This document shows, one piece after another, positions 1,382 to 34,219 of a stretch of 64,000 nucleotides of DNA. The DNA is taken from NCBI GenBank assembly GCA_963422735.1, contig OY730476.1, positions 192,001 to 256,000 of the forward strand, given 5' to 3'. This DNA is from Candidatus Latescibacterota bacterium. Lineage in GTDB: Bacteria; Latescibacterota; UBA2968; UBA8231. Position 1 is the stretch's first letter, and the number at the start of each line of letters is the position of its first letter. The notes beneath the pieces were generated by a model. The model was not told where the DNA came from. It ran no database searches and saw nothing but the letters and a program-made list of their open reading frames with translations. The position numbers were made by a program, and so were the translations under genes.

Positions 1382-1715
1382 CGGAATTTCCTAGTGTACG
1401 GTTGGGCATTCAGGTTTCATGTAGGCGGTTTCACTCGGCTGGCCCGTAGATCTCGTCCGGGCCAGCGCGGTCCCCCGCGTCGATGTTCCGAGGCCCGTCG
1501 CCGGGTACCCGTCGCCAAGGGGGCGGATGGGACGGACCACAGACCACAGACCACAGACCACAGACCACAGACCACAGACCACAGACCACAGACCACAGAC
1601 CACAGACCACAGACCACAGACCACAGACCACAGACCACAGACCACAGACCACAGACCACAGACCACAGACCACAGACCACAGACCACAGGTTAAACAGTC
1701 CTCTAGGAAAGTCCG
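1382..1715 (+). mobile_element. MITE copy A1 with terminal inverted repeats, 8-bp target duplication and internal (ACCACAG)22 array
   Basis: Left end CGGAATTTCCTAG, right end CTAGGAAAGTCCG; ATCTGGTA flanks both sides (1374..1381, 1716..1723); the body recurs inverted at 34093..34219. Confidence 0.85.
1536..1689. repeat. Perfect heptamer tandem repeat (ACCACAG)x22
   Basis: Read directly, 154 bp. Confidence 0.97.
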
Positions 1716-1819
1716 ATCTGGTATATCGTCTGGCTAGCCTTTGCAATGCTTTATCCGTCAACTGAAACGCTTCTCCCTCCGACCGCATGGTAGCAACCTG
1801 CAAAAGAAAGGAAAATCCT

Positions 1820-2839
1820 ATGTCCACCATCCCCACGCGCTCTTTGCGCACCGGCGTCGAGCTAAGCACGCTCGGCTTTGGCGGCGCCCCCTTGGGCGAG
1901 CTTTTCGATCCGGTCAGCGAAACCCAAGCCCAAGACACCCTGCAAGCGGCTTGGGACGCTGGCATCCGCTACTACGACACCGCCCCGTTCTACGGCTACG
2001 GCAAAAGCGAGCACCGCCTCGGCCATTTTCTCCGCCAGCAGGAACGCGGCGACTTCGCACTCTCGACCAAGGTCGGCCGGGTGCTCACAGCCACCCGCAA
2101 TCTCGATTCTTTCGAGAAGGGCTTCTGGATTGGCGGCCTGCCCTTCGACTTCCGTTTCGACTACGGGTACGACGGCATTATGCGCTCGTGGGAAGACAGC
2201 TTGCAGCGGCTGAGCCTCAACTCTATTGACCTGCTGTTGATCCACGACCTCGACAGCTTCTTCCACGACAGTGAGCAGCGCTTCTCCGCCCACCTCAACC
2301 GCCTAATCACCAGTGGCTGGCGCGCCCTCGACGAGCTGCGCTCGCAGGGGCTGGTCAAGGCCATTGGCGCGGGCCTCAACCGCATGGGGGCCATGCCGCG
2401 CCTGCTCGATGCAGTTGACCTCGACTGCTGCATCGTTGCCATGCCCTATACGCTTTTGGACCAAGACTCCCTCGACGAGGAATTCCCGCTTTGCGAGGAG
2501 CGCAATGTGCGCATCGTCATCGGCTCGGTTTTCGCCTCCGGCATCCTCGCCTCCGGCCCGGTCGAAGGTGCCCGCTACGCCTATGACACAGCCTCACCCG
2601 AAATCCTCGAAAAGACGCGCCGCATCCAAGCCGTCTGCCAGCGGCACGACGTGCCCTTGCCTGCCGCCGCCATGCAGTTCCCGCTCGGGCACCCGCTCGT
2701 CGCGGCGATTATCCCGGGCGCGCAAACACCGGCCCACATCGAGACTAACGCCCAGTGGTTTCAGCGCGAAATACCAACGGATATGTGGGCCGAGCTAAAG
2801 GCGGAAAGATTGTTGCGGGAAGACACGCCGACGCCGTGA
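1820..2839 (+). CDS. Aldo/keto reductase (D-threo-aldose 1-dehydrogenase-like)
   Basis: LGFGGAPLG, YYDTAPFYGYGKSE, STKVGR, DLLLIHD motifs; ATG 1820 follows AAGGA. Confidence 0.9.
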   Translation: MSTIPTRSLRTGVELSTLGFGGAPLGELFDPVSETQAQDTLQAAWDAGIRYYDTAPFYGYGKSEHRLGHFLRQQERGDFALSTKVGRVLTATRNLDSFEKGFWIGGLPFDFRFDYGYDGIMRSWEDSLQRLSLNSIDLLLIHDLDSFFHDSEQRFSAHLNRLITSGWRALDELRSQGLVKAIGAGLNRMGAMPRLLDAVDLDCCIVAMPYTLLDQDSLDEEFPLCEERNVRIVIGSVFASGILASGPVEGARYAYDTASPEILEKTRRIQAVCQRHDVPLPAAAMQFPLGHPLVAAIIPGAQTPAHIETNAQWFQREIPTDMWAELKAERLLREDTPTP

Positions 2840-2879
2840 GGGCATTGGGAAAACAACCTAGAGAAAGGATATGTAAGTT

Positions 2880-3257
2880 ATGAGCCTGCTTGCGAGAATA
2901 TTGGGCAACGCCGGCGTCGTAGATGTAGAAACGTTGCAAGCGGACTATGGGCAGTTGCTCGTCGACGGCGAGGACATTGAGGTCGGGTTCAAGGTCATTC
3001 GCGATACGTTTGTATTCACAAACAGGCGATTGACTCTCGTCAATATCCAAGGCATGACCGGGAAAAAGGTGGAATACCTATCCATACCGTACGGCAGAAT
3101 CGCGAAGTTTAGCATTGAGACAGCCGGGAGTTTTGATCTCGACGCCGAACTAAAATTGTGGATCGGTAGCGACCCCATGCCGCTGGAGAAAAAATTCAAC
3201 ACAAAGGTAAACATCTACGATCTGCACAAGGTGCTATCGACCCATGTCCTCGGTTAG
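2880..3257 (+). CDS. Bacterial PH-domain protein (bPH_1)
   Basis: RDTFVFTNRRL, QGMTGKKVEYLSIPY, FSIETAGSFDLDAELKLW. Confidence 0.9.
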   Translation: MSLLARILGNAGVVDVETLQADYGQLLVDGEDIEVGFKVIRDTFVFTNRRLTLVNIQGMTGKKVEYLSIPYGRIAKFSIETAGSFDLDAELKLWIGSDPMPLEKKFNTKVNIYDLHKVLSTHVLG

Positions 3258-3272
3258 CGTCCGCTCCGTCGT

Positions 3273-3389
3273 CTAATACACATGCGGGCAAAATAGTTCC
3301 CGAACTTGGGCGTGGTGCCTGCGCGAACGATCTGTGGCCGACAGGAACACGCTGGTGTCGGCGAACAGGATCTCACCTGCCGTCGTCAT
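3273..3389 (-). pseudogene. Truncated VapC/PIN toxin (N-terminal 38 aa only)
   Basis: MTTAGEILFADTSVFLSATDRSRRHHAQVRELF resembles a PIN-domain start (DTxV); lies directly after the antitoxin. Confidence 0.55.
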
Positions 3390-3603
3390 CGTAGATCTCG
3401 TTTCGAGACCATGTTGGTGTGGCTCGTCCGGTCTCTACCGCGATCCATGACATCGCCTCTAGCTGTTCGGGTGGGGCGGTGCGAGCGGCCCGCTCCAGTA
3501 TTGCATGCAGATCTCCTTGGAGCGAGCGACGGTGGCTCTTGACCAGCCGTTTCAGGGCAGCCAGAATGTTGGGATTCACATCTCTGATATGTAGTGATTT
3601 CAT
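3373..3603 (-). CDS. FitA-like ribbon-helix-helix antitoxin
   Basis: MKSLHIRDV...LKRLVKSHRRSLQGDLHAILE, Arc/RHH pattern. Confidence 0.75.
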   Translation of the reverse strand: MKSLHIRDVNPNILAALKRLVKSHRRSLQGDLHAILERAARTAPPEQLEAMSWIAVETGRATPTWSRNEIYDDDGR

Positions 3604-3795
3604 GCTGCTATCAAAAGGATACCATCACTCTCTGTCAAAGGCCGCGTAGGTTGCGAGTTTGAACAGAAAAATCCCGTTTCCTTATGTTTGAATAGCAGGG
3701 CCCCAAACGACCGTTGTTGCCATGTTTGTCCATCCTACTCACGTATCGTCTCCGGGAAGAGCCGTCTCAAAACCCTTTCTAAAGGTGTTTGCCTT

Positions 3796-6700
3796 ATGAA
3801 GTCTTTGATCGGCAGTCTCATCGGATTGATGTTGAGCGTCTGCGTCTGTACCTCGAGCGAAACCGAGCAACACTACTCGCCCCAAGAGCTGGAAGCGGCG
3901 AAAGCGGAACTGCGTGCGCACAATCGGTTGTGGACGTTCGAGGCGGGAGCCGTACTCGGCCAAGAATGGACGAGCCGTGCGCCGGAGGACGCCGAGCTGC
4001 GGGCACTCTACGCGCGTCAGCTACACGGGCAGTTGTACGGGCACCGAGAGATCCAGGAGCAAGCCGACGCGATCTTGGAATGGGAGCCGGACAACCCGTG
4101 GGGACTCTATGTGCAAGCACTCGCGTTTCTGGCAAACAGGGAGTACTCAGAGGCGGCCGAGTCCAGCCTACGCGCCTGGATGCGGCAGCCTCGGCCGGAG
4201 TTTGCCGCGACGTACCTTCAGGCGCTTAGGTTCAACGCGGAAGCGGGGATGGCATTTCTGGACTCAGTAGATGCGGCGACCCGCCAGCATCCTGAGGTTC
4301 TCCATGCCCGCGCGGAACTCGAGTACATGGCACGGTACACGCTGGAGGATCCCGCCTATGCGGATACGAGCCGGGCTACCTTGGCCCTGCTCCGAGCGCG
4401 TTGGCCCGACCACGTCAGCGGCTACTTTCGCGCCGCGGAACAGCTCTACCAAGCCAATAAGCCGAAGGAGGCACTCCCGCTGATCGAAGAGGCCGTTCGC
4501 CTCGCCCCGGGCTCTGCGGATGTGCGCTATTGGCATTGGCAGATTCTCAACGAGACGGATCAGCGCCCCGCCGAGCAGCGACGCACCGCCATTGAGGCCA
4601 GCATCACCGCGTATCGGAAGGCCGTGCCGGAGACCGTACGCGGCCTCGCCCTGCTCACCACGACTTATAGGTACGTACTCGAGGACGAAGAGAAGGCAGA
4701 GGAGTTTGAAGCGAAGCTGCTGGCGCAGGCTCCCGCGAGCCGACATGCGTCGCGGATCCACCAACAGAAGTTCCAACGGGAGTACCAACGATTACAGTCC
4801 AAGTTGGACCACCGCGAGGACGCGCCGGAGTACCAAGATCAGCTTCGCCTCGTCCGCGACGCGGCCTATCGGTTCCTCGAAAAACCCCTCTACGACGATA
4901 GCTTCCGCGAGAGGGCGTACCAAGCACTCTTCAGTGCCCTAAGCGACATGAACCCGGTTCCGGCCGAGGAACTCGCCGAGGCGGTGCGCGGCTTGGTCCG
5001 GTACGAGCGGCTCAACCCGCACCTAACGCACAGTGCCCTTATCTTGATGGCCGACCACACGCCGTACGCCGAGGAGGTCGCAGCAATCGCTCAGGGCGTC
5101 ATACAAGCCATGCTCGATAGGGCCGAAGAGGAAGCATGGGGGGAGGGTCGGCTGGACTACTACTTGGGCCTCGTCCACGATGCCCTCGGGTGGGCTCGCT
5201 ACAAAGCGGGTCGTATCGAGGAAGGCCGCAACGAGCTTGAGCGGGCACTGGAGTTTTCGAAGAGAAACACCCGTGCCCACTATCACTTAGGCCAAGTGTT
5301 CGAGCACATGGCGACCGAGGCCGAGGCTCGGGACGCCGTCGAGGCAGCCCGCACTTGGCTCGACAAGGCGGCGGACGCCTACATCGCCGGCCTCGAGGTC
5401 CGAACTTGGGGGACCAGGTCCAACCCCTGCCAGGCGGCCCTAGCCGCGCTGTACGAGCGCCGGAACGGCTCGCGCGAAGGGCTCGACGAGTATCTCGCCA
5501 CGCTCCACGCCGAGATCCGCTTAACGCCCAAAATCGACCTCCACCTCGAACCAACCCCTATTGAGGGGCTCCCCGATCGCACTCTCAATCTCCCGCCCGG
5601 CTTTAAGGTCAAACTTTTTTCTGACCAAGTAGATAAAGCCCGCTTCATGGCCTGGGACGACCAAGGCGTTCTGCATGTGGCGAACATGAAGACTCGCGGA
5701 AGGAGTCCATGGAGCCCAGCTTCCGGCCGCCAAGGCACGGTACTAGCCTTGCCCGACCAAGACGGCGACGGCCGCGCCGACACTGTGTACAAAGCGGCCG
5801 ACGACCTTAACTGGCCCCACAGCATCGCCTTCTATCAGGGAGCGCTCTTCGTCGCCGACGACGATGCCATCTATCGCCTCGAAGACCGCGACGCGGACGG
5901 CTTCTACGAGGAGCGCACCGTCTTCGCCGAAGTGCCCGGCTTTATGGGTCTTGCCTATGAGCACGTAACCCATACGCTGGTTTTCGACGAGTCCAACGAC
6001 AAGCTCTACTTCCACATTGGCGCGGGTTGCGACATCTGCCGCGAAGACGATCCAGAACGCTCCGCGGTCATACAGATGAACACCGATGGCACGGGTCGGC
6101 GGATCTTTGCTTCTGGACTGCGCAATGCCATCGGCCTCGATTTGCACCCGGTCACAGGCGAGCTGTGGGGTGCTAACACTGGGCACGACCGCGAGGGCCG
6201 GGACTTGCCGCCGGAGTGGATCACCCCCCTCCGCGACGGCGGCTTCTATGGCTGGCCGTTTGCTTACGCGGACAAAGTCTGGACGGATTTCTCCATTCGC
6301 GCCTACCAAAGGTCGATCTTTCCGCTGACTCGCTCCGATTCGCTGTTGGTTGCCAACATGGAGTCTCCAGCCGTCCTCGTACCCGCCCACTTGGCACCTA
6401 TGGCGTTGCATTTCTACAAGCACGACCAGTTTCCCCCTCAGTACAAACACGCTGCATTTGTCGCCTTTCGCGCGGGTGCATTGGGCAACGATCCGGGCTA
6501 TAAGGTCACGGCACTCTTTGCCGAACCGGATGGCTCCAACGCCCGCATCGCCGATTTTCTCACCGGCTTCCGGCTCGATTCCAACGAGGGCTGGGGTGCG
6601 ATCTCCGGTTTTTCCTTTTTTAATACCGGCAACGTGTGGGGTAAGCCGGTCGGGCTGACTACTGACGAGGCCGGACACCTCTATTTGACCAGTGACGAAA

Positions 6701-7047
6701 ACACCCAAGCCATCTTCCGCATTGAGGCTAGCCCCCTCCAGGGCACGTGGGAAAATCCCCCGCCCGACACCCTGCTCGCCGGCGCGGTGCTACCTTTGCG
6801 TTCGACGATTCGCCTCCGGCGGCAGGTAGCAGGCGCAGAGCCAGCTCAGCTAACGGCCAATCTGGCTGCGCTGGACGGCCCAGAGGCATTGCCTTTGCAG
6901 CGAATAGACGACCAGACCTATCGCTTGGAAGCCGACCTCTCGGCCGGCGAGCGCAACGGCCGCAAGAAACTGGTGGTGCATCTCGTCCAAGGCGACGAGG
7001 CGACCAAGTTGGTGCATTCTATCGTCGTGCTGCCCAGACAAGACTAG
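3796..7047 (+). CDS. Secreted TPR-repeat protein fused to a glucose/sorbosone dehydrogenase-like beta-propeller
   Basis: Signal-like N-terminus; TPR helices (DALGWARYKAGRIEEG...ALE); then LPPGFKVKLF, FASGLRNAIGL, GFYGWPF, PAHLAPMALHFY, GKPVGL motifs. Confidence 0.75.
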   Translation: MKSLIGSLIGLMLSVCVCTSSETEQHYSPQELEAAKAELRAHNRLWTFEAGAVLGQEWTSRAPEDAELRALYARQLHGQLYGHREIQEQADAILEWEPDNPWGLYVQALAFLANREYSEAAESSLRAWMRQPRPEFAATYLQALRFNAEAGMAFLDSVDAATRQHPEVLHARAELEYMARYTLEDPAYADTSRATLALLRARWPDHVSGYFRAAEQLYQANKPKEALPLIEEAVRLAPGSADVRYWHWQILNETDQRPAEQRRTAIEASITAYRKAVPETVRGLALLTTTYRYVLEDEEKAEEFEAKLLAQAPASRHASRIHQQKFQREYQRLQSKLDHREDAPEYQDQLRLVRDAAYRFLEKPLYDDSFRERAYQALFSALSDMNPVPAEELAEAVRGLVRYERLNPHLTHSALILMADHTPYAEEVAAIAQGVIQAMLDRAEEEAWGEGRLDYYLGLVHDALGWARYKAGRIEEGRNELERALEFSKRNTRAHYHLGQVFEHMATEAEARDAVEAARTWLDKAADAYIAGLEVRTWGTRSNPCQAALAALYERRNGSREGLDEYLATLHAEIRLTPKIDLHLEPTPIEGLPDRTLNLPPGFKVKLFSDQVDKARFMAWDDQGVLHVANMKTRGRSPWSPASGRQGTVLALPDQDGDGRADTVYKAADDLNWPHSIAFYQGALFVADDDAIYRLEDRDADGFYEERTVFAEVPGFMGLAYEHVTHTLVFDESNDKLYFHIGAGCDICREDDPERSAVIQMNTDGTGRRIFASGLRNAIGLDLHPVTGELWGANTGHDREGRDLPPEWITPLRDGGFYGWPFAYADKVWTDFSIRAYQRSIFPLTRSDSLLVANMESPAVLVPAHLAPMALHFYKHDQFPPQYKHAAFVAFRAGALGNDPGYKVTALFAEPDGSNARIADFLTGFRLDSNEGWGAISGFSFFNTGNVWGKPVGLTTDEAGHLYLTSDENTQAIFRIEASPLQGTWENPPPDTLLAGAVLPLRSTIRLRRQVAGAEPAQLTANLAALDGPEALPLQRIDDQTYRLEADLSAGERNGRKKLVVHLVQGDEATKLVHSIVVLPRQD

Positions 7048-7058
7048 ACCCTGAACCA

Positions 7059-8279
7059 ATGAAACGCCTCCCGCTCATCGTCCTCTGCTGTGTGTCGCTG
7101 TACTCCTGCGTCAAAAGCCTCGTTGACCCGGACATTCAGCCTTTGTCTGCGGCAAGTCCTAAAATAATGGTCCACTATATGCCTTGGTACGCCTCCAAGC
7201 CCGTCAGCGGCGCGTGGGGCTGGCACTGGACGATGAATCACTTTAATCCCGACACTATCGCCGACGATGGCCGCCGCGCAATAGCCTCTCATTACTACCC
7301 ATTGATCGGGCCGTACGATTCAAACGATCCACACGCCTTGGAATGTCATGTATTGCTTATGAAGCTCGCGGGCATCGACGGCGCGATCATCGACTGGTAC
7401 GGCATCAAAGATCACCGCGATTACGCCGCGATCCACCGCAACACAAATCACCTAATTGCGTACATCAAAAAGGCTGGATTGAGCTTCGCAATATGTTACG
7501 AAGATCAATCGGTGAAGCACCTCGTCAACGATGGGGTTCTCCGCGAAAATCAAGCCCTTAGCCACGGCAAGGAGGTCTTGCGCTGGATGCAGGATCACTG
7601 GTTTGTCGCCGACGAATACGCCAAGATCGCTGGCCGGCCTCTGCTCTTCGTATTCGGTCCGCAGTACTTCAAAGGGGCGGCGTGGAAGAAGCTATTTTCG
7701 GGCTTGCCGCAACCTCCGTACTTCTACACCCTGAACTCACCGCAGGAAGGAGCCGAAGGGGTATTCGGGTGGCCTCCAGTACACGAAGGCCGCGTCGTGC
7801 CTCCTGTTGCTTGGCGCGCCTACCTAAGCCAGCTCTACACAGAGAAGGCCGGCATCGGCACGGCGTTTCCCAAGTTCCACGACATCTGCGAGGAAGCCGG
7901 TGTGCGCGAAAGCTACGGCTACCTAGACGACCAAGAAGGCGCGGTTTTTGTAGAGACGCTAGAACGCGCTGGGGAGCGCGCGTCGCTGATCCAGATTGTC
8001 ACTTGGAACGATTATGGCGAGGGCACCATAATCGAGCCGACGGCGGAATTCGGTTATCGCTATCTCGAAGCACTACAGAACTACCGCAAAAAGTACGCCG
8101 GCAAGAAGTTTCCTTACAGCGCAGAAGATCTGCGGCTACCCATCGCGCTATACAAGCTTCGCAAACAAGTAGCGGCGGACGGGCGGGCAACCACACGCCT
8201 CGACAGCGCAGCGGCCCTTCTATTCGCGTCTGAGAGTGAGGCCGCGAGAAAAATACTGCTCCGGGACGCCATTGACTAG
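7059..8279 (+). CDS. Glycoside hydrolase family 99/71-like lipoprotein
   Basis: Lipobox (VSLYSC), HYMPWY, YYPLIGPYDSND, AGIDGAIIDWYG, TWNDYGEGTIIEP. Confidence 0.8.
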   Translation: MKRLPLIVLCCVSLYSCVKSLVDPDIQPLSAASPKIMVHYMPWYASKPVSGAWGWHWTMNHFNPDTIADDGRRAIASHYYPLIGPYDSNDPHALECHVLLMKLAGIDGAIIDWYGIKDHRDYAAIHRNTNHLIAYIKKAGLSFAICYEDQSVKHLVNDGVLRENQALSHGKEVLRWMQDHWFVADEYAKIAGRPLLFVFGPQYFKGAAWKKLFSGLPQPPYFYTLNSPQEGAEGVFGWPPVHEGRVVPPVAWRAYLSQLYTEKAGIGTAFPKFHDICEEAGVRESYGYLDDQEGAVFVETLERAGERASLIQIVTWNDYGEGTIIEPTAEFGYRYLEALQNYRKKYAGKKFPYSAEDLRLPIALYKLRKQVAADGRATTRLDSAAALLFASESEAARKILLRDAID

Positions 8280-8300
8280 AGCGCACAGAGGGGATACCCT

Positions 8301-9302
8301 GTGACGACCTTTCACCCGGAGCGCGTTATGGACCTGACCACTGCCGAATGCCAACACTTCCACGACCTCGGCTACGCAATCAAAGAAGACATCTACTCTC
8401 AAGCCGATCTCCAACCCCTCAAGGACAGCCTCACTGCCGTCATTGACCAGACGTGTGCCGCCTTGCAAAAGGAAGGGCTGCTCGGCGCGGAAACCTTTGC
8501 CGCCGAACCCTTTGAAACCCGGCTCGGTTCCCTCTTCAAAGCCAATGTCGCAGTCGGCGAGCGCGTGACCCAAGCGATCATGGGGCGCGGTGGCGGCGGC
8601 TTCAAGGAACAGGCCATTCTCGACTTTTTGCGCCATCCGCCGCTCGTCTCCTGCATCGAAAGCCTCGTCGGCCCCGACATCATTGGCTCGTCCGTGTACC
8701 GCATCCGCCCCAAGGCCCCCGGCTACTCGCGCGGGGCTGTGCCTTGGCACCAAGACTCGGGTTATTTTATGCCTCACTGCGATCAGAGCCTGATCGTGAC
8801 CTGCTGGATTCCCCTCGTCGATGCCACCATTGAAAATGGCTGCCTACACGTCATCCCCAAATCGCACCACAGCGGCGTCTATCGCCACTACACCGGCGGG
8901 CAAGGCGGGTATCTCGAAATCGCCCGCGAAGACCTGCCGGCCCCCGAGCCTGTGGCCTGCCCAATGTGCGCCGGCTCGGTGCTCTTTATGACCAATCTCA
9001 CTCCGCACGCCTCCTTTGAGAACAACACCGACATCGTCCGCTGGAGCGTCGATCTCCGCTACCAAGACGCCGAAGTCCCAAACAACATTGACGAAGCCCC
9101 CAGAGACTTCAGCCCGGAACGCGACCCAATCACCATGGCCTGTCTGCCTACGGAAGGCGACTTTGTCATCAAAGACGCACAAAAACCAGAGCGCGAAGTC
9201 ACCGACATTGCCGAATTCAAGGAAATCCGCACCCGCTACGAACGGACCCCTGTACACAAGCCCGGCCGCGGCTGGACTCCTTTTGCCGAGCGCCAAGTCT
9301 AA
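8301..9302 (+). CDS. Phytanoyl-CoA dioxygenase (PhyH) family protein
   Basis: PWHQDSGY, WIPLVDATIENGCLHVIPKSH, PHAS..N, RWSVDLRY. Confidence 0.9.
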   Translation: MTTFHPERVMDLTTAECQHFHDLGYAIKEDIYSQADLQPLKDSLTAVIDQTCAALQKEGLLGAETFAAEPFETRLGSLFKANVAVGERVTQAIMGRGGGGFKEQAILDFLRHPPLVSCIESLVGPDIIGSSVYRIRPKAPGYSRGAVPWHQDSGYFMPHCDQSLIVTCWIPLVDATIENGCLHVIPKSHHSGVYRHYTGGQGGYLEIAREDLPAPEPVACPMCAGSVLFMTNLTPHASFENNTDIVRWSVDLRYQDAEVPNNIDEAPRDFSPERDPITMACLPTEGDFVIKDAQKPEREVTDIAEFKEIRTRYERTPVHKPGRGWTPFAERQV

Positions 9303-9311
9303 CTTTTCGCT

Positions 9312-9956: not shown

Positions 9957-9961
9957 GTTCG

Positions 9962-21165: not shown

Positions 21166-21177
21166 ACAGGAGGAACT

Positions 21178-24672: not shown

Positions 24673-24702
24673 CTTGCCGGAAAGCATCTGTACCAACGAA
24701 TT

Positions 24703-24735: not shown

Positions 24736-24798
24736 CGGTCCTTTTACCACGAACATTCGGGTTTTCATTCCGAATGTTCATGGTTATATTATCGCATT

Positions 24799-25956: not shown

Positions 25957-26012
25957 GCAGTAGCTTGGGGGTCATAGCACCGCGTCGTCCAACTACAGAG
26001 GAGAAAACAAAC

Positions 26013-26526
26013 ATGGAACACGTTTATTTTATGCCTTGGATCGGCGATAACTACCGGAGTGGGCGTCCTTGGCGAATCTCATTATCAATGGGACGAAGAG
26101 ATCCCTGTACTACCCGGATTGACGATTGAGTGTATCGAGGCGCAGATATCCGGTAAAGAAACTCGGGCGTTCTGGACGAACATTGCGATTGCGTTCCTGA
26201 ACAAGCGTCCTTCTGCCGAGGACAAGAGAGAGTTTTGGCATTCCGTTGCTTTTTACAACTACATTTAGGAGTGCGTTGGGTTTGGACCAGGCGTTCCTAC
26301 CAAGGAGATGTGGGAAAAAGCCCGTGAACCGTTCAAAGAAGTGCTTTTTGAACTTCGTCCTCAATTTATCGCCGTGCTTGGCTATGGGTTGTGGCACAAC
26401 CTTCCAGACAATGGCTCACAAGGATCGACAGAAAGCGATTGGTGCTATCCACACGCGTGGGCGTTTCGGATGAAGGCTCCAGTAAAGGGTTTGATACGGG
26501 CACTCGGTCGTACGCCGAGTATCTGA
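26013..26526 (+). pseudogene. Uracil-DNA-glycosylase-like protein remnant
   Basis: FMPWIGDNY, VLGESHY, FWHSVAFYNYI*, ELRPQFIAVLG; frameshift plus TAG at 26266. Confidence 0.5.
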
Positions 26527-26580
26527 GGGTGCTTGTCCTAGGCTGCACAGGAATGCGCTAAGCCGCAGGCTCTTGACGAC

Positions 26581-26620
26581 AAAAGAGGCCGGCACTCCAA
26601 AAAGGAGTACCGGCCTCTTT
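26581..26620. terminator. Bidirectional intrinsic terminator (end of the xdh operon)
   Basis: AAAGAGGCCGG..CTCC-AAAAA-GGAG..CCGGCCTCTTT inverted repeat. Confidence 0.75.
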
Positions 26621-26642
26621 GCGTTGTATCCATTACGGCTGG

Positions 26643-26912
26643 CTAACTCGCGCCTCCAGACAGTGCCGGCAGGAAATGCACCTCGCTGTGCGGCCCCACC
26701 TTAGCCCGCAGCCCAGCCGCGACCACTTCGCCATCAACGGCAACGGCAATCTCGGTCTTGATGCGGTCGCCATCGAGAATCCGCTCTTTGAACTTAGGGT
26801 AGCGGGCGTCGAGCGCGGCAACGACCTCGCGCACGGTCGCGCCCTCTACCTCTACTTGCTGCTGGCCGGCGGTCAGCTTCTGCATCAGCGAGGGAATCCA
26901 AACGACGGGCAT
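26643..26912 (-). CDS. MoaD/ThiS-family sulfur carrier
   Basis: VEGATVREVV..LD..YP, VHFLPALSGG. Confidence 0.85.
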   Translation of the reverse strand: MPVVWIPSLMQKLTAGQQQVEVEGATVREVVAALDARYPKFKERILDGDRIKTEIAVAVDGEVVAAGLRAKVGPHSEVHFLPALSGGAS

Positions 26913-26917
26913 AGCTT

Positions 26918-29173
26918 TTAGCTACTCCCGGCCAGCGCGGCGACAATGCGGTCGGGCTTCATGGGCAATTCCTGCGGACGCACACCGAGCGCGTCCCCAA
27001 TGGCCGCCGCAATGGCCGCTGGCGGTGGGGCGATGTTGGCCTCGCCGACCCCGCGCACGCCATAGGGGTGGCCAGGGTTGGGGACCTCGACGATGATGGT
27101 CTCAATCATCGGCAGATCGAGGCTGGTTGGGATCCGGTAGTCGAGATAGCTGGAATTGTCGAGGTGGCCGTCGCGGCTGTAGAAGTACTCCTCGTTGAGT
27201 GCCCAACCAATGCCTTGGGCCGATCCGCCCTGCATCTGGCCCTCTACGTACGCCGGGTGAATTGCCCGGCCGGCGTCTTGGACGACCGTAAAGCGCAAAA
27301 TCTCGACCTTGCCGGTCTCGGGATCCACCTCGACATCGGCGATATTGGCCGCAAAGGAACCGCCGACGCCCGAGTCTGGATTCACGGTGGCGCGACCAAT
27401 GACCGGGCCGCCGGTCTCTTCGAGTCGGCCAGCCAGTTCCTTAAAGGTCAGCGCGTTATCGCCGAAACGGAAGACGCCGTCGGCAAACTCGACTTGGCTT
27501 ACTTCGACCTCCCAGAGCTGGGCCGCACGCTCGCAGAGCTGGTCCCGCACGTCGAGGGCGGCCTTGTACGCGGCCCAGCCGGTGGCGTATGTCACGCGGC
27601 TGCCACCGGTTACGTCCGTGTGGCCGATTGAGTCCGTGTCGGCCACCTGCGGTTTGACGTCTTCGGCCCGCAGGCCCAAGGTCTCGGCAAACTGCATGGC
27701 GACCGACGTGCGCGTACCGCCGATGTCGGTCGAACCCTCGACTAAGCAGACCGTGCCGTCTGCGTTGACGCTTGCCGTGCAGGAGGACTTGAGCCCGACG
27801 TTGAACCAATAGCCGACCGAGATGCCGCGCCCTCCGTTGGGGCCAGCGGGTGCTGGACTCTGGTAGTGCTCCGAGTTGGCGATGGCCTCCAACACCTCCT
27901 TGCAGCCCATCTTAGGATACACCACGCCGTCAATGCGGCGGGTGCCGGTGGTCGCGCTGTTTTTGAGCCGGATCGCTAGCGGATCCATCCCCAATTCGGC
28001 GGCCAGCAGATCGACCACGTGCTCGGTGGCGAAGGCCACCTGAGTCGAACCCGGGGCGCGATACGCGAAACTCCGCGGCTTGTTGACCACTACGTCATAG
28101 CAGTCAATCCGGCCATCGGGTATGTCGTAGCACGAAAACACGCACATAGCGGCTGCGCCGACCAAGCCGCCGGGATAAGCCCCGGATTCAAAGGCGATAT
28201 AGGCGTCGGCGGCTACGATCTTGCCGCTTTTGTCAGCACCCATCTTGATCTTGATGTACGACCCAGGGGTCGGGCCGGTACTCTCGAAGACGGCTGGCCG
28301 GGTCATAACCATCTTGACGGGTTGGCCGCTCGCCTTGGAGAGCAGGGCGGCGACCGGCTCCAAGTAAATCGGGATTTTGCCGCCAAAGCCGCCGCCGATC
28401 TCTTGGGGCACGACCTTGATCTTGGAAATGGGTATGTCCAAGACCGCGCCGACTTGGGCGCGCGCGGTGAATGAACCTTGAGTGCTGGTCCAGATCGTCA
28501 ACTGGCCATCGGCGTTCCAGCTCGCCGTGGCGTTGTGTGGCTCAATGTACCCTTGATGTACGGTAGCAGTCTGAAACTCGCGCTCCACGACTACGTCGGC
28601 CTCGGCAAAGGCCCTGTCTGGATCGCCGAGCTTGTGCTCAAAGTGGGTGGCGAGGTTGCTCTTGTGGCCGGTGTCTTCCCCAAACTCTTGGGTGGTCATG
28701 TCGTCGTGGAGTTGGGGCGCACCCTCCTGCATGGCCTCGCGCACATCGAGCACGGGATCTAGGACCTCGTACTCGACTTCGATCAGGTCGAGGGCCTCTT
28801 CGGCAATGTGGACGTTGGTAGCGGCGATGGCGGTGACTGGATGCCCGCTGTACAGGACCTTATCCGTAGCCAGCACGTTGTCGCGCAGGTATTTGAGCCG
28901 AGCCGGGCCTTCGCCGAGATCGACCATTTGGTCTCCGGCATTGGGCAGATCGAAGCCTGTGAGAATAGCCTTGACCCCAGGCAGGGCAGCGGCTTTAGCA
29001 GTGTCTATGGACTTAATGCGCGCATGGGCGTGGGGCGAGCGCAGGACCTGTCCGTAGAGCAAGCCGGCCAACCGGGTGTCGCCGCCGTAAATGGCGCGCC
29101 CAGTGACTTTATCAACGCCATCGTGGCGGATGGGACGGGTGCCGATGACTTTGTAGCCGTTTGTGGCAGACAT
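26918..29173 (-). CDS. Xanthine dehydrogenase family molybdopterin-binding subunit
   Basis: ATG 29173 after GAGGAGG; KVTGRAIY, RSPHAHARI, GGGFGGK, AYRAPG, QGIGWALNE, GVRGVGE. Confidence 0.93.
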   Translation of the reverse strand: MSATNGYKVIGTRPIRHDGVDKVTGRAIYGGDTRLAGLLYGQVLRSPHAHARIKSIDTAKAAALPGVKAILTGFDLPNAGDQMVDLGEGPARLKYLRDNVLATDKVLYSGHPVTAIAATNVHIAEEALDLIEVEYEVLDPVLDVREAMQEGAPQLHDDMTTQEFGEDTGHKSNLATHFEHKLGDPDRAFAEADVVVEREFQTATVHQGYIEPHNATASWNADGQLTIWTSTQGSFTARAQVGAVLDIPISKIKVVPQEIGGGFGGKIPIYLEPVAALLSKASGQPVKMVMTRPAVFESTGPTPGSYIKIKMGADKSGKIVAADAYIAFESGAYPGGLVGAAAMCVFSCYDIPDGRIDCYDVVVNKPRSFAYRAPGSTQVAFATEHVVDLLAAELGMDPLAIRLKNSATTGTRRIDGVVYPKMGCKEVLEAIANSEHYQSPAPAGPNGGRGISVGYWFNVGLKSSCTASVNADGTVCLVEGSTDIGGTRTSVAMQFAETLGLRAEDVKPQVADTDSIGHTDVTGGSRVTYATGWAAYKAALDVRDQLCERAAQLWEVEVSQVEFADGVFRFGDNALTFKELAGRLEETGGPVIGRATVNPDSGVGGSFAANIADVEVDPETGKVEILRFTVVQDAGRAIHPAYVEGQMQGGSAQGIGWALNEEYFYSRDGHLDNSSYLDYRIPTSLDLPMIETIIVEVPNPGHPYGVRGVGEANIAPPPAAIAAAIGDALGVRPQELPMKPDRIVAALAGSS

Positions 29174-29193
29174 GGCGTTCCTCCTCGTTGGGG

Positions 29194-29388
29194 TTACACC
29201 TGTTTGAGGTTGGTGGGGGGCTCCCGCTTGATAGCCCACGCCAGCGCAACAACCCATCCTACGAGCGTCCAGCCGAGGAATAGGTTGACTACAAAGATTA
29301 AGGCGCGGCTTTTTTCTTTGTCCCTTATCACGAGCAGGGTTGGCAGGAAATACACAAGAGAGCCGACTATAGATAGCATCCACTCCAT
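29194..29388 (-). CDS. Superinfection immunity protein (T4 Imm-like)
   Basis: YFLPTL...IFVVNLFLGWTLVGWVVALAWA signature; GGAGGAG RBS. Confidence 0.85.
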   Translation of the reverse strand: MEWMLSIVGSLVYFLPTLLVIRDKEKSRALIFVVNLFLGWTLVGWVVALAWAIKREPPTNLKQV

Positions 29389-29402
29389 AGTGCTCCTCCA
29401 GC

Positions 29403-29882
29403 TCAGGCGCTTTGGCGGACTTCCTCAGCAGCGTCGAGGACTGCGCGGACGATCTTGTCGTAGCCCGTGCAACGGCACAAGTTGCCGGCCAGCCAGTGCC
29501 GCACTTCGTGCTCGGAAGGGTGGGGGTTGTGGTCGAGCAGGGCCTTGGAGGCCACCAAAAAGCCCGGAGTGCAGATACCGCATTGAAGCGCGGCGTGTTC
29601 GAGAAACTTCTGCTGCACCGGGTGCAAGCTATCCGGGCTGGCAAGGCCCTCGACCGTTTCGATTTCCTTGCCCTCGGCCTCGACGGCCAGCATTAGACAA
29701 GAATCGACGAGGATGCCGTCAACGGCGATGGAGCACGCACCGCAGTTGCCGTCGTTGCAGCCCTCTTTGGTGCCGGTGAAGCCGAGCGTCTCGCGCAATA
29801 CCTCGAGCAGGCTGTGGCGCGGCTCGCAGAGAAATTCGGTCGGCTCTCCGTTGATCGTGGTTTGGACGTGTGTTTTGCTCAT
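29403..29882 (-). CDS. (2Fe-2S)-binding subunit, CoxS/XdhC type
   Basis: GTKEGCNDGNCGAC, QCGICTPG, GNLCRCTGY. Confidence 0.95.
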   Translation of the reverse strand: MSKTHVQTTINGEPTEFLCEPRHSLLEVLRETLGFTGTKEGCNDGNCGACSIAVDGILVDSCLMLAVEAEGKEIETVEGLASPDSLHPVQQKFLEHAALQCGICTPGFLVASKALLDHNPHPSEHEVRHWLAGNLCRCTGYDKIVRAVLDAAEEVRQSA

Positions 29883-29970
29883 GTACCTTAACTCCGAATT
29901 TGGGCCGCTTGCTGCGGCTAGTGAAGAGTGTTTCCCGCCGACCGGATGGTCGGTGCAAGTATCTAACCCT

Positions 29971-30879
29971 CTAGCCAGCCGCTTCCTGCACGGCGTTGGC
30001 GACGAACTGGCCGCGAGCCCGCGCGACAGCCCCCGCGAGGGTGCGCTTGACCAGTACCCCGACGAGGTGGGTGCGGAACTCAGCCGGGCCGCGCATATCG
30101 GAAATCGGGCGAGCCACGCTCTGGGTCATTGCAGCAGCCGTTGCGATGGCCTCGTCTGAGACGGCTTGGCCCGCTAGGCTGTCGCCGGCCTCGCTGGCGA
30201 AAATCGGCGTGGGGCCGACCGCGGCGAGCGCGATGCGTGCGGACTTAAACTCCTTGCCGCGCTTGGCCAAGACGACGTGGGAGGACACTCCGACGACGGC
30301 GATGTCCATCTCGTTGCGCGGAATGAAGCGCTGGTAGTGAGAGCCTGTGTTCTTCTTGGCAACCGGGATCTGGAGAGAAACCAAGATCTCGCCGGGCGCG
30401 AGCACGTTGCGGCCCGGGGCGGTGCAAAAATCCTCTACGGCGACTTGGCGCTTGTCGTCCGGCCCGGCGATGTGGCACACGGCCGAGTGGGTAATCAGGC
30501 TGGGGATCGCGTCCGCGCTGGGAGAGGCGTTACACAAATTGCCGCCAAAGGTGGCGCGGCCCTGTATTTGGATGCCGCCAATAATGGCGGCCGAATCGAC
30601 GAGCCCAGGGTATCGCTCGACGATTCCGGGGTCATTGTAGATGCGCCAGCAGGGCACAGCCGCGCCGATGATCAAACCCCGGCGGGGGCCGTAGGAAAGC
30701 TCGTTGGCCTCGGGGACGTTTTTGACGTCGAGGATGCAGTCGGGCGCAAAACGCTTCCCGCGCAACTGGACGATCAAGTCGGTGCCACCAGCGAGGATGC
30801 GGGCGGCCTCGCCCTTTTCGGCCTTGAGGGCCACGGCCTCGCGCAACGTGCTAGGGGCGCAGTATGCAAAATTTTTCAA
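29971..30879 (-). CDS. FAD-binding subunit, CoxM/XdhB type
   Basis: LAGGTDL, ATFGGNLCNASPSAD, PISDMRG. Confidence 0.93.
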   Translation of the reverse strand: MKNFAYCAPSTLREAVALKAEKGEAARILAGGTDLIVQLRGKRFAPDCILDVKNVPEANELSYGPRRGLIIGAAVPCWRIYNDPGIVERYPGLVDSAAIIGGIQIQGRATFGGNLCNASPSADAIPSLITHSAVCHIAGPDDKRQVAVEDFCTAPGRNVLAPGEILVSLQIPVAKKNTGSHYQRFIPRNEMDIAVVGVSSHVVLAKRGKEFKSARIALAAVGPTPIFASEAGDSLAGQAVSDEAIATAAAMTQSVARPISDMRGPAEFRTHLVGVLVKRTLAGAVARARGQFVANAVQEAAG

Positions 30880-31261
30880 GGAAAAGCCTCCTCATTTCTA
30901 AGTAATGGTCGCTACGTTCGCGCCTAATTATGGACTGAGCCATTCCCGCTGTCAAGAGCGGAGAAAGGCCCCTCATCGCAGTTGGAATGAGCACCTGAGC
31001 GAGCCTGCTCGGGGCAGGTGCAACCCCGAAAAAAACGTCCTCGCGCCGCCATTGAGGGCCATGGCCCAGCCCCAAGGATGCCTCTAACCGGAGGGGGCTC
31101 ACCCTCATAAGGGGCAAACCGAGGAGAGAAAAGGTCTAGGTCGCCATCGCCATCTAAGTCGGTCAAGACGCCGCTCCCCTACATGCCCTAACCCCGGTGT
31201 AATCGGATAAAAGACCGGATACTATATATGGCCAACGACAGGCCGCATCAACAATTTCTCG

Positions 31262-32137
31262 TCAATCGCTTTCTATCTCCGCCTCCAAACTCCAATAGAC
31301 CGTTTCGATCCAGCGCTGCGTTGGCACGAAAGACCACTCCCACGACGCCCATTGAGAGCCGAGTCCTTCTGCGCGGATCTGGTCGAGGGACCTGCCCGCG
31401 CTCCGGCGCGTGCGTACGCTGGCCGTAGTTTCCACCAACATGCGATGATAGGTCTTCAGGTCGTCGAGGGTAGCGACCGGGCCGTGGCCGGGGATGATTT
31501 TCGCGTCCGCAGAAAGCTGATCGATGAGCGTGGCGATGTGTTGCGTCAGGGTCTCGACGTCGCCGCCGTACTCTAGATCGACAAAGGGGAAGAGGCCGTT
31601 GAAGAAGAGGTCGCCGAGATGGGCGATTTGAGCGTTGACAAAGAATACGGCGATGTCTCCGTCTGTGTGGCCGTGGGGAAAGTGAACGGCCCGGATTTCC
31701 TCGCCGTTGAAGAACAGGGACGCCGACTGCTCAAACACAACCACTGGCAAGGCAACCGCCGGCGCAGGCTCAACGAACCGCTTGCCAAATTCACCGCCCG
31801 TCGCCAAGCGTTTGCGGGTGTTGACGTGGGCCAAAATCGTCACGTGCTGGCCAAAAGCGCGGTTGCCGCCGGTGTGGTCGGCGTGGAAATGCGTATTGAA
31901 GATGTACTGAGGCTGACCGGCAAAACGAACTAACACAGTGCGCACTGCATCGGCCTGCGACGCCAACTTGTCATCCACCAAAAGAATGCCATCGTCTCCG
32001 ACGCAAATCCCAACATTGCCGCCACCGCCTTGCAACACATACACCGCGTCGCTGAGCTGGTCCAGCGACAGCTCGGCAGCCGCTGGACCAGCCGCTAACA
32101 GTGCCACAATTAATGTTCGAGCATTTAATAAGCGCAT
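31262..32137 (-). CDS. Secreted MBL-fold metallo-hydrolase (cyclase-like)
   Basis: Signal peptide, THFHADHTGGN, GHTDGD, GDL, PGHG. Confidence 0.9.
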   Translation of the reverse strand: MRLLNARTLIVALLAAGPAAAELSLDQLSDAVYVLQGGGGNVGICVGDDGILLVDDKLASQADAVRTVLVRFAGQPQYIFNTHFHADHTGGNRAFGQHVTILAHVNTRKRLATGGEFGKRFVEPAPAVALPVVVFEQSASLFFNGEEIRAVHFPHGHTDGDIAVFFVNAQIAHLGDLFFNGLFPFVDLEYGGDVETLTQHIATLIDQLSADAKIIPGHGPVATLDDLKTYHRMLVETTASVRTRRSAGRSLDQIRAEGLGSQWASWEWSFVPTQRWIETVYWSLEAEIESD

Positions 32138-32259
32138 AGTTTTTCTCCGCGATTGCTGAGGAAGCATACCATATCTCTCCGGTCTCTTCGGTAGGAAACT
32201 CTTCGCTTCTCCGCACCTTTAGGCGTGCTCCTTACCTACTTACAAATGACGTAAACGGC

Positions 32260-33897
32260 TCACCGCTCGCTATTTCTCTCTTCTATCGTTACATACCGAT
32301 TGACCTGCAGGTCGGTAAAAATCTCGCAGTGCTGGTCGGGCCAGCGCACTTCGAGCGTATCGACCCGCTTGACGCGCCCTAGCCCGAAGTGGAGGCGGCG
32401 GTCCTCGCTGGAGAGAAAACTGCTGCCGCAGACGAGGTCGCGGATCTGCGTCCGCTTGCCAGAGACGAGTCGCACGCGGGCACCAATGCCATCGCGGTTG
32501 CCGCGCGTACCAACCAAGCGCAAGCCCAGCCAATTCTGCTGGCTGCCCACATCGTTCCGCAACAGCGAGGGCCGATCGTCGAGATTGGCAACAAATACAT
32601 CCAAGTCGCCGTCATCGTCAAAGTCGAACATGTTGGTTCCTCGGCTGACGCGGGCCTCCTCACGGCCGAGCGCGACCTTGGTAAAAATGCCGTCGCCAAC
32701 ATTGGCAAAAAGATGATTGGGTTGGGCATACGCACTGCCGCTACCGGCGCGGTCGATCTGCGGATACACGTGGCCATTGGCCACCAACAAATCGAGGTCG
32801 CCATCGTGGTCAAAGTCGAAAAACCCAGCGCCAAAACCCACGTGCGTCCCCCCCGTGTGTCCCAAGACAGCTTCCGCGCTGACATCCGCAAAGGTGCCGT
32901 CGCCCTCGTTGCGATAGAGAGTATTGTACTCGTCTTCAAAATGCGTGGCGAGCAAATCGGGGCGGCCGTCATTGTCGTAGTCGCCCCAAGCCACCCCCAT
33001 GCTCGCTTGGATTTGTCCGCTACGGCCATAGGCCAAGCGGGCCGGAAGGGAGCGGTCGATAAAGCGGCCATCGCCGCGATTGCGATAAAAAAAGTTCGGG
33101 CTGGAGTCATTGGCCACGAACAGGTCGGGCCAGCCGTCGGCATCCATGTCCACAAACAGTACGCCCAAGCCGTAGCCTGGAGAAGGGTGGTTGAGACGCG
33201 CCCAAGCGGTGATGTCGGCAAACTCGTCGCCGTCGTTGCGATAAAACACATCCGCGGCCCCCATTAATCCCCCTGGGCCGACAAAGACCTTCACCCCCTT
33301 CCATTGCGCCCCCAAGCGCTCGACCGCAGCGGAATCGAATACCGCATAGCTCGCCACGTACAGGTCGAGGTCGCCATCGCGGTCGTAGTCGGCCCAAGCC
33401 GCGCCCGTACTCCAATGGGGCATAGCCACGCCAGCTGCTGCGGCCACATCGACAAACTCGTCGCCGTCGTTGCGAAAGAGCAAATTCTCCCGCAATTGAG
33501 TCGCGTACAAGTCTTGGTCCCCATCGTTGTCAAAGTCCGCGCTGGTTGCGCCCATGCCCCAACCGCGGCCCGCGGTCCCAAACACCTCGCCCACATCAGC
33601 AAAGCCGGCTAGCCCATCGTTGCGGAAAAGCGCGTGGCCGCCGCCTTTGCCATTGACCCAGTAGAGGTCTTGGTCGCCGTCGCGATCAAAGTCGAGCGCG
33701 GCCGTGCCGCCGCCTTTGGCCTCGGGGATATAGCCCTTTTCCAAGCTGCCGCTCGTATGGACGCGGGTCAGGCCGAGTTCAGCGGCCACATCGACGAAGG
33801 GTGGAGGCTCGGCGGTAGCGCAGCACGTCCACAGGATGATTGCGCAGAGGCCGCTGGCTATGTTTGGGGAAAACGCGGGCACTAGAATCATTCCCAT
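32260..33897 (-). CDS. CRTAC1-family protein (FG-GAP/VCBS repeats + ASPIC/UnbV); start uncertain
   Basis: Repeated DxDxDGDxDL motifs; NRDGIGARV, LHFGLG, EVRWP. Confidence 0.9.
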   Translation of the reverse strand: MGMILVPAFSPNIASGLCAIILWTCCATAEPPPFVDVAAELGLTRVHTSGSLEKGYIPEAKGGGTAALDFDRDGDQDLYWVNGKGGGHALFRNDGLAGFADVGEVFGTAGRGWGMGATSADFDNDGDQDLYATQLRENLLFRNDGDEFVDVAAAAGVAMPHWSTGAAWADYDRDGDLDLYVASYAVFDSAAVERLGAQWKGVKVFVGPGGLMGAADVFYRNDGDEFADITAWARLNHPSPGYGLGVLFVDMDADGWPDLFVANDSSPNFFYRNRGDGRFIDRSLPARLAYGRSGQIQASMGVAWGDYDNDGRPDLLATHFEDEYNTLYRNEGDGTFADVSAEAVLGHTGGTHVGFGAGFFDFDHDGDLDLLVANGHVYPQIDRAGSGSAYAQPNHLFANVGDGIFTKVALGREEARVSRGTNMFDFDDDGDLDVFVANLDDRPSLLRNDVGSQQNWLGLRLVGTRGNRDGIGARVRLVSGKRTQIRDLVCGSSFLSSEDRRLHFGLGRVKRVDTLEVRWPDQHCEIFTDLQVNRYVTIEERNSER

Positions 33898-33931
33898 AGG
33901 GGCAGCCCTTGTGGGTGCCCTTTTTTAATTA

Positions 33932-34219
33932 CGGACTTTCTTTAATTAGTGGTTAGTGGTTAGTGGTTAGTGGTTAGGGGTTAGTGGTTAGGGGTTAGGG
34001 GTTAGTGGTTAGGGGTTAGGGGTTAGTGGTTAGGGGTTAGTGGTTAGTGGTTAGGGGTTAGTGGTTAGGGGTTAGGGGTTAGGGGTTAGGGGTCCGTCTC
34101 ATCCGCCCTCTTGGCGACTGGTCCCGGAACATTGACGCGGGGGACCGCGCTGGCCCGGACGAGGGCTACGGGCCAGCCGAGTGAAACCGGAATTCCCAAC
34201 CGTACACTAGGAAATTCCG
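33932..34219 (-). mobile_element. MITE copy A2 with internal (TTAGKGG)21 array
   Basis: Reverse complement begins CGGAATTTCCTAGTGTACGGTTGGG, as at 1382, and ends GAAAGTCCG; 127-bp body closely matches A1; no matching target duplication. Confidence 0.8.
33946..34092. repeat. Telomere-like heptamer array, 21 mixed TTAGTGG/TTAGGGG units
   Basis: Read directly, 147 bp (10 T-type and 11 G-type units). Confidence 0.95.

Follow-up and report, generated by a model that had tools for sequence, protein, structure and literature searches.

Two short elements of one family lie in the window, i.e. the whole analysed stretch of 64,000 nucleotides. Each carries a heptamer array at the same internal site, and the arrays are nearly equal in length and consist of different units. 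The question is how one site came to hold different repeats. A sequence-only reading of this DNA proposed a non-autonomous element of the IS1595 type with a replaceable repeat cassette, constrained in length and rewritten in its unit.

The elements of the window

The features considered are as follows.

1374..1381, + strand: left 8-bp target-site duplication of MITE copy 1, identical to 1716-1723
1382..1715, + strand: MITE copy 1, 334 bp (left TIR at 1382-1394, 152-bp body, array, 25-bp tail)
1394-1765: repeat-derived predicted ORF
1506..1536, + strand: G-rich core and junction (GGGAC-GGA) of copy 1, at the 3' end of the body
1537..1690, + strand: heptamer array of copy 1, 22 units (21 CCACAGA and one CCACAGG)
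1703-1715, + strand: right TIR of copy 1, within the 25-bp tail
1716..1723, + strand: right 8-bp target-site duplication of copy 1, identical to 1374-1381
33932..34219, - strand: MITE copy 2, 288 bp (left TIR at 34207-34219, 124-bp body, shortened 14-bp tail)
33946..34092, - strand: heptamer array of copy 2, 21 units (11 CCCCTAA and 10 CCACTAA in aperiodic order)
44628..44768, no strand assigned: solo two-armed heptamer hairpin of the CCACTRA family, outside any MITE

Both elements were located where the sequence-only reading had placed them and have the termini it described, and its counts of 22 and 21 units were reproduced. The duplication flanking copy 1, ATCTGGTA, is exact over 8 bp, as it had claimed. 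Copy 2 is missing 15 nt from its right tail and has no recognisable target duplication (4/8 mismatches). Its body carries both 14-nt deletions relative to copy 1. These indels, each flanked by short direct repeats 14 nt apart, had been noted as a difference between the two bodies; they are not private, and recur in 5 and 13 of the 52 copies of the family. The suggestion of a hairpin-rich body did not hold: the body of copy 1 folds no better than shuffled sequences (z=-0.49), and the body was dropped as a candidate structured RNA. An Rfam search of positions 1300-1800 gave nothing at E up to 5. The solo hairpin consists of a left arm of about 8 units, a 32-bp core and a right arm of about 8 TCACTGA units, and its folding compared with shuffles has z=-10.9. 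The units of the two copies, earlier described as different, are both variants of CCACTRA, one or two bases away from it.

An IS1595-type MITE in the source genome

The source genome (G000, 95% complete) contains 52 copies of the IS1595-type MITE, 33 of them complete; 55 left-end matches were reduced to this set by removal of a right end misread as a left one, an unrelated match and a 39-bp stub. Complete copies are about 190-340 bp long, with 13-bp TIRs that have one mismatch, and the 8-bp duplication is exact in 19 and has at most one mismatch in 26 of the 33. The target sites are AT-rich, and all 52 copies are intergenic by the gene calls made in this analysis. The copies have the features of MITEs, being short, apparently non-coding, bounded by TIRs and dispersed with duplications.

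At site 1760820 of the source genome, the downstream gene adjoins different DNA in runs X8 and X10, from relatives about 90% identical, and the loose ends of these runs show that the site is empty in related strains. A decayed copy at 2133.7 kb corresponds to an orthologous gap without insert in 24 aligned relatives; this locus was rejected as a donor hairpin, being a decayed insertion specific to the source genome. The MITE body is absent from all 40 related genomes except for one 29-bp match, and by this sequence comparison the family is species-specific among the genomes searched. The 20-bp left end has a single match in the GTDB genomes, in a Binatia MAG, without a partner end or an intact transposase; it was rejected as a relative, as the likeness is confined to the TIR. 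The read check covered positions 1759501-1771500 of the source genome, with four short-array copies, and used Logan contigs only: contigs of run X2 agree in every letter over the flanks of these copies and over both truncation junctions. In RNA runs at most 8% of a neighbouring stretch is present, and 28% in one run that is only guessed to be RNA.

Members of the IS1595 family are described as having 8-bp target duplications (PMC8101967). Autonomous elements of this family were found in two congeners, with lengths of 3,595 bp (three copies in G043) and 3,934 bp (G020). Twelve of 13 terminal bases are identical to those of the MITE, and the elements encode a transposase with Zn-ribbon and DDE_Tnp_IS1595 domains (PF12762, E 1e-36; PF12760, E 1e-9). 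Their own duplications are poorly preserved, with at most one mismatch in 1 of 4. The ends of the MITE also fit the motif CGGnnTT, the end motif of ISNha5. The MITE shares 8-bp duplications with IS1595 insertion sequences that have ISNha5-like ends, and its TIRs are near-identical to those of the G020 and G043 elements; unlike them, it is short and has no transposase. Its interior has no BLAST similarity to the congener elements, and these contain no heptamer runs. The TIRs, the duplications and the congener transposons together bear out the earlier assignment to a non-autonomous element of the IS1595 type. A transposase gene flanked by such TIRs, which the sequence-only reading had suggested looking for, is present in the congeners; in the source genome no intact IS1595 transposase was found, and the one remnant is an N-terminal relic without the TIRs of the MITE. 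For this reason we infer the mobiliser from the congeners, whose IS1595 transposase is the candidate trans-acting partner.

Heptamer hairpins outside the MITE

The CCACTRA family accounts for 108 of the 110 period-7 arrays in the source genome, which fits capture of the genome's heptamer repeats, one of the causes that the sequence-only reading had listed. There are 81 solo arrays of at least three units, most of them arms of small hairpins; 34 hairpins are two-armed, with none in the opposite polarity. No MITE copy is among these 34, the MITE being one-armed. The junction word of the MITE occurs in phase in 42 of the 81 solo arrays versus 0.6% of random sites. Of 131 other genomes in the class, 23 contain the junction-plus-units word, and such words recur in species of another family. 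One two-armed hairpin site, upstream of the same gene, is common to the source genome and G003.

A core profile built from the solo cores only gives a median of 4.1 bits for the MITE and a leave-one-out median of 3.3 for the solo arrays, the median at random junction-word sites being -3.4 (95th percentile 2.2, 99th percentile 4.5). The MITE score is therefore above the 95th but not above the 99th percentile of controls, with a weak profile that reflects mostly G-richness. The 3' end of the MITE has the appearance of a single core and arm acquired by capture; no donor hairpin was found.

Genes encoding the four-helix-bundle IVP are bracketed by same-polarity arms of the CCACTRA family in G000, G019, G026 and G029. 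No published description of such heptamer-armed IVP (23S rRNA IVP, PF05635) cassettes was found. The MITE resembles them in arm family and polarity and differs in having one arm and no IVP gene. This gene was rejected as a requirement, since six array-bearing genomes lack it (G002, G003, G004, G012, G018, G082). A Y1/RAYT transposase was rejected as the hairpin mobiliser: the source genome has three fragments, and matches exist in 2 of 5 hairpin-rich relatives. Ends within 25 bp of genes are found for 53 of 81 solo arrays versus 25 of 66 MITE ends (P=0.001), and an insertion preference may be the cause. RNA wobble selection on the arms was also rejected: the 3' and 5' arms do not differ (8/18 versus 7/12, and 4/18 versus 5/12), nor do the arm variants of two-armed and one-armed arrays.

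Length and variation of the MITE arrays

Over the 52 copies the arrays have 1-27 units with a median of 4; at least 20 units are found in five copies and at most six in 32. The near-equal lengths claimed for the family are thus a property of the window, the chance of some 64-kb window holding two copies with at least 20 units being P=0.14. As the repeat of each copy grows, shrinks and mutates, the equal lengths of the window copies are due to chance and do not indicate a swappable cassette. The array does occupy a fixed site within the element; its length is not constant. No correlation of length with age, judged from decay of the duplication, was observed (rho -0.12, P=0.52).

The arrays contain higher-order periods of 14 bp and 21 bp, which are typical of local duplication. 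The unit CCACGGA occurs in 5 of 27 copies with the GGA junction, in none of the other 25 (P=0.05) and in no solo array; it would be the product expected of a 7-bp duplication across this junction. The final unit is CCACTGA in 26 of the 33 complete copies. Of 231 site pairs in the bodies, 165 do not pass the four-gamete test, and r2, as a measure of linkage, declines from 0.13 for sites up to 10 bp apart to 0.03 for those more than 30 bp apart (permutation P=0.01); recurrent hot-spot mutation could mimic part of this mosaicism. The periods, the junction-made unit and the mosaic bodies, read as sequence patterns, point to slippage and conversion between copies, and homogenisation, another of the causes listed earlier, fits in this local form. 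Units of the CCCC type do not cluster on similar bodies (P=0.75), and those of the TCAC type cluster weakly (P=0.016).

At unit position 1 the change C>T is seen in 26 arrays, versus 2 for positions 2 and 4 together, and at position 3 A>C occurs in 14 of 106 arrays and A>G in none. Among 19 truncated copies, 15 break inside the array or at its end. Leftward losses number only 1-2 (P 0.0005-0.002 if both directions are equally likely), an asymmetry that is inflated because copies stripped of body and tail alike would go undetected. For MITE copies, a halting of deletions at gene boundaries found no support: 8 of 19 truncated and 14 of 33 complete copies lie within 25 bp of a gene (P=1). The narrow unit vocabulary and the mostly outward deletions from the array stay odd.

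Origin of the arrays

Probably, an IS1595 MITE acquired, on a single occasion, a core with one arm from the genome's older family of heptamer-armed hairpins, and was then dispersed in trans by an IS1595 transposase to more than 50 intergenic sites. We infer a short founder array, with the junction GGA followed by about three units, the last being CCACTGA. After insertion each array would behave as a VNTR: slippage by one or more 7-bp steps would change its length and sweep variants through it. New variants would arise by a few favoured changes, mostly by copying of the array's own opposite strand, which is plausible because the unit is a near-palindrome; the A>C change at position 3 is not explained by such copying. 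Judging by the mosaic bodies, further variants may come from conversion between copies. The array would also be a deletion hot spot, and the frequent removal of the right end would immobilise the copy. This explanation accounts neither for the excess of 20-23 units described below nor for the outward bias of deletions.

The cassette of the sequence-only reading would mean that a block of about 150 bp is replaced, either through templated, telomerase-like synthesis as by DRT10 or through exchange of whole arrays. Such a cassette is very unlikely, even though a length of 20-23 units is found for 9 of the 36 arrays with at least 8 units (scan-corrected P=0.02), the bodies of copies 952920 and 979904 are four differences apart and their arrays hold 22 versus 23 units of different make-up, and the units of copy 1 match solo arrays elsewhere. 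The excess loses its significance without the two window copies (7/34, P=0.15), most arrays are short and of one unit family, and longer arrays exist (26-45 units in the source genome, 27-38 in G029). DRT10 is a telomerase-like reverse transcriptase that makes short tandem-repeat DNA; it requires the RT and an ncRNA and produces free protein-primed cDNA, and the available description makes no mention of integration (bioRxiv 10.1101/2025.10.16.682844). No RT was detected in the 95% complete source genome (no PF00078 match; four motif-scan hits, none convincing), and mixed arrays with higher-order periods are unlike the output of a single template. Templated synthesis is not supported, though a divergent RT, or one in the missing 5% of the genome, may have escaped these searches. 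It is improbable, too, that assembly or polishing created the lengths near 150 bp: 21-22 units do correspond to a common read length, but several arrays of 20-23 units are aperiodic mixtures, not expected from collapse, longer arrays exist, and the run X2 contigs fully match the flanks and truncation junctions of the four short-array copies. Least credible is the MITE as the source, with solo arrays as its decayed copies. The doubly truncated copy at 2133.7 kb, with both TIRs gone, does resemble a solo core plus array; however, MITE-free genomes have two-armed hairpins of the same words in abundance, an orthologous hairpin site is shared with G003, and the MITE is one-armed only. The MITE-free relatives refute this origin for most solo arrays, and a few one-armed ones can have arisen so.

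Another possibility, which we consider unlikely, is that a trans-acting process, e.g. involving the IVP protein or else some nuclease or polymerase, recognises the G-rich core and rewrites, extends and erodes arrays outward, both in the MITE copies and in the solo hairpins. It would agree with the narrow vocabulary at positions 1 and 3, the same words in another family, the fixed hairpin polarity, the concentration of truncations in the array or at its end and the IVP genes between same-polarity arms. However, the six hairpin-rich genomes listed above have no IVP match, Y1 transposases were found in only two of five hairpin-rich genomes, truncated arrays are no nearer to genes, doubly shortened copies escape the deletion count, and transitions from opposite-strand copying cover most variants without a dedicated factor. 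That bacterial heptamer arrays, instead of arising passively by slippage, are written and eroded outward from the G-rich core by a dedicated process, possibly tied to IVP cassettes, is unlikely. If it were true, the MITE, with a core and arm brought to 52 sites, would be a natural replicate experiment recording the process in a shared narrow vocabulary, in deletions that run one way and perhaps in a preference for a length of about 150 bp, and the origin of heptamer arrays would be opened to direct test.

Under the preferred reading, uptake of a core and one arm by the MITE, the family illustrates how the unexplained intergenic heptamer repeats of bacteria can be acquired and spread by a transposon, and how the passenger repeat may then destroy the right end of its carrier. 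The 52 arrays, with one putative founder, form a data set for the mutation and deletion spectrum of heptamer arrays.

Comparison with known systems

The paired heptamer repeats of Xanthomonas (GGGAATC) and Nostoc, described as little studied in origin, are similar in being intergenic 7-bp arrays of variable length, with one family per genome, often in inverted pairs and with an unexplained origin (PMC4692102). The heptamers of the source genome differ in the unit, in the recurring G-rich core and junction word, and in having one arm inside a transposon.

A close likeness is seen to BrickBuilt, a MITE of Porphyromonas gingivalis that consists of a leader, an internal tandem array of 1-22.8 units and a tail, with both ends present in 11 of 19 elements (PMC4596501). 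Like the MITE described here, it is reported as species-restricted and intergenic, with many copies lacking one end and with imperfect units that differ between elements. The unit of BrickBuilt is 23 nt, compared with 7 nt here; unlike BrickBuilt, the present MITE has a unit family that is genome-wide and occurs also outside the element, and its ends match IS1595. Thus it is a new, BrickBuilt-like MITE family of an already described type, that with an array inside the MITE.

The MITE family and its IS1595 ends

Two MITEs, IS1595-type non-coding elements made of a body, a heptamer array and a tail, occupy the positions and strands first noted for them, and the window holds a further array pair in no MITE.

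1382-1715, plus strand: MITE copy 1, with a 152-bp body, junction GGA, 22 units, a 25-bp tail and an exact 8-bp duplication
33932-34219, minus strand: MITE copy 2, with a 124-bp body, 21 units, a tail 15 bp shorter and no intact duplication
44628-44768: two-armed heptamer hairpin of the CCACTRA unit family, the third array pair in the window

The genome (G000; 4.95 Mb, one contig, 95% complete) contains 52 MITE copies with body and array (55 left-end matches minus three dropped), 33 of them complete and 19 lacking the right end. By the rough gene calls of this analysis every copy lies between genes, without orientation bias, and the targets are AT-rich. The target duplication is exact in 19 of the 33 complete copies and has at most one mismatch in 26. 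In contigs of sequencing run X2, the flanks and both truncation junctions of a 12-kb stretch with four copies are letter-identical to those of the genome. The body was sought in 40 relatives and was absent save for one 29-bp match. At G000:C1:4872994-4873380 one copy has its core, array and downstream flank in triplicate, at a spacing of 100 bp.

The two 14-nt body indels seen between the window copies are real. However, they are not peculiar to this pair, recurring in 5 and 13 of the 52 copies, and each is flanked by short direct repeats spaced 14 nt. The body had been described as hairpin-rich, but that of copy 1 folds no better than shuffles (z=-0.49); no Rfam family matched it. The hairpin at 44628-44768 has a folding z of -10.9. 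It lies between the start of an isochorismatase-domain gene and the end of a FlgD-domain gene, and its units differ between arms. Just upstream of copy 1, at 899-1374, is a broken BrnT/CopG-type toxin-antitoxin pair, with a BrnT fragment (PF04365, E 5e-5) and a fragmented antitoxin (PF12441, E 2e-4); neither match reaches its curated cut-off.

No intact IS1595 transposase was found in this 95% complete genome; the sole trace is an N-terminal relic (39% over 137 aa). Two congeners carry IS1595 elements, of 3,934 bp in G020 and of 3,595 bp, in three copies, in G043. These have 12 of 13 starting bases as in the MITE and encode a Zn-ribbon and DDE_Tnp_IS1595 transposase. These elements lack heptamer runs and nowhere resemble the MITE body; just one of the four keeps a near-exact duplication. 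The usual target duplication of the family is 8 bp (PMC8101967). The element shows the features of a MITE and of IS1595 ends for which it was tested. The proposed IS1595 type is supported by the ends, the 8-bp duplications and the congeners' transposase elements with matching ends. The ISNha5 label is putative and goes by the end motif CGGnnTT.

Another short element (L190-L192, three copies in the relative G042) has an IS1595-type left end as in the MITE, without a heptamer array and with no right end within about 800 bp. In a Binatia MAG, an IS1595-like end (L183) shares 20 of 21 bases with the MITE left end; no partner was found within 8 kb, and the adjacent ORF resembles a restriction endonuclease.

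Origin of the heptamer arrays

The heptamer array is not the MITE's own. The window copies do carry different units, as first read, but these are variants of one word, CCACTRA, which accounts for 108 of the 110 period-7 arrays detected in G000 by TRF. Outside the MITE there are 81 solo arrays of at least three units. In 34 two-armed elements the arms point away from a core 11-66 bp long; the reverse polarity does not occur. The MITE's in-phase junction word opens 42 of the 81 solo arrays, compared with 0.6% at random. The final 13 bases before the MITE junction score like solo cores with a profile built without the MITE, though this profile consists mostly of G-richness.

Elsewhere in the class, 23 of 131 genomes contain the junction-plus-units word, 1 to 41 times each. 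One two-armed site is common to G000 and its relative G003, upstream of the same gene. A four-helix-bundle (IVP) gene is flanked by CCACTRA-family arms of the same polarity in G000, G019, G026 and G029, and relatives' IVP genes at L075, L078, L080, L082 and L084 have runs of other heptamers, mostly inverted pairs. Most simply read, the MITE took up one core together with one arm. No hairpin was found to be the donor; a candidate at 2133.7 kb proved to be a decayed MITE copy, missing at the orthologous gap of the 24 aligned relatives. At L051 (G026:C84) a palindrome of the GTAGGGGCG type, which we take to be REP-like, has a CCACTGA array at its end; this suggests that other hairpins can seed arrays too.

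Array length and change

The sequence-only reading proposed a replaceable cassette of near-equal length. The 52 arrays span 1-27 units (median 4), five have at least 20, and some window would hold two such copies with P=0.14 (shuffle); therefore equal length is no property of the MITE, and with this range and one unit family the cassette finds no support. Among all arrays of at least eight units, a residual excess at 20-23 units (9/36, scan-corrected P=0.02; 7/34, P=0.15 minus the two window copies) is not established.

Templated synthesis, one of the causes suggested, fares no better. Neither a Pfam search nor a motif scan found an RT in G000, although a divergent one could be present. The arrays here, mixed and in several long cases with higher-order periods of 14 and 21 bp, are at odds with DRT10, which is described as making free, protein-primed repeat cDNA from a single template (bioRxiv 10.1101/2025.10.16.682844). 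Such higher-order periods indicate local slippage, as does the unit CCACGGA, which would arise if 7 bp were duplicated over the GGA junction. Of the 27 GGA-junction copies, 5 have it; it is absent from the 25 other copies (P=0.05) and from all solo arrays. The final unit is CCACTGA in 26 of the 33 complete copies, which agrees with a founder whose array was short. The bodies are mosaic, with 165 of 231 site pairs failing the four-gamete test and linkage dropping with distance (P=0.01); this points to exchange between copies. Recurrent mutation could contribute. A process directed by the core, building arrays and wearing them down, seems improbable to us.

The unit vocabulary is narrow. Among 106 arrays, 26 have C>T at position 1, compared with two at positions 2 and 4, 18 have A>G at position 7, and 14 have A>C at position 3, where A>G is never seen. 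Changes at positions 1, 6 and 7 bring the unit to match its own opposite strand, which suggests quasi-palindrome template switching; A>C at position 3 is not accounted for in this way. Variants at positions 1 and 7 are found in 8 and 1 of the 52 MITE arrays, compared with 35 and 31 of the 81 solo arrays, consistent with the youth of the former. A test for RNA wobble selection gave it no support. Across the genome, CCACTAA, CCCCTAA, TCACTAA and TCACTGA arrays have stops in all six frames. The words CCACTGG, CCACAGA, CCACAGG and CCACGGA are stop-free and prevail in the in-frame arms within the mod gene near G000:59550.

Deletions

Of the 19 truncated copies, 15 are broken inside the array or where it ends (one in the locally triplicated locus) and four in the tail, against one or two leftward losses, an asymmetry that may be inflated because copies without both body and tail escape detection. 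At copy 1760820 the downstream duplication copy is still present and adjoins the array, as left by a deletion between the AT-rich tail start and the target; runs X8 and X10 (~90% identical) join the downstream gene to other DNA. At 1764204 an X10 relative has at least 170 other bases at the array end. Truncated ends are no closer to genes than intact ones.

Comparison with known systems

Neither an IS1595 MITE that has captured a heptamer arm nor IVP genes with such arms turned up in a literature search covering few subscription journals. In its workings the MITE resembles BrickBuilt of P. gingivalis (PMC4596501), which holds 1-22.8 internal units and has often lost an end. Its passenger array is akin to the paired heptamer repeats of Xanthomonas and Nostoc, described in PMC4692102, a paper that also cites polymerase slippage for heptamers. 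What this analysis adds is the IS1595 partner, a connection between the MITE and the heptamer-hairpin family, and the variant and deletion spectra.
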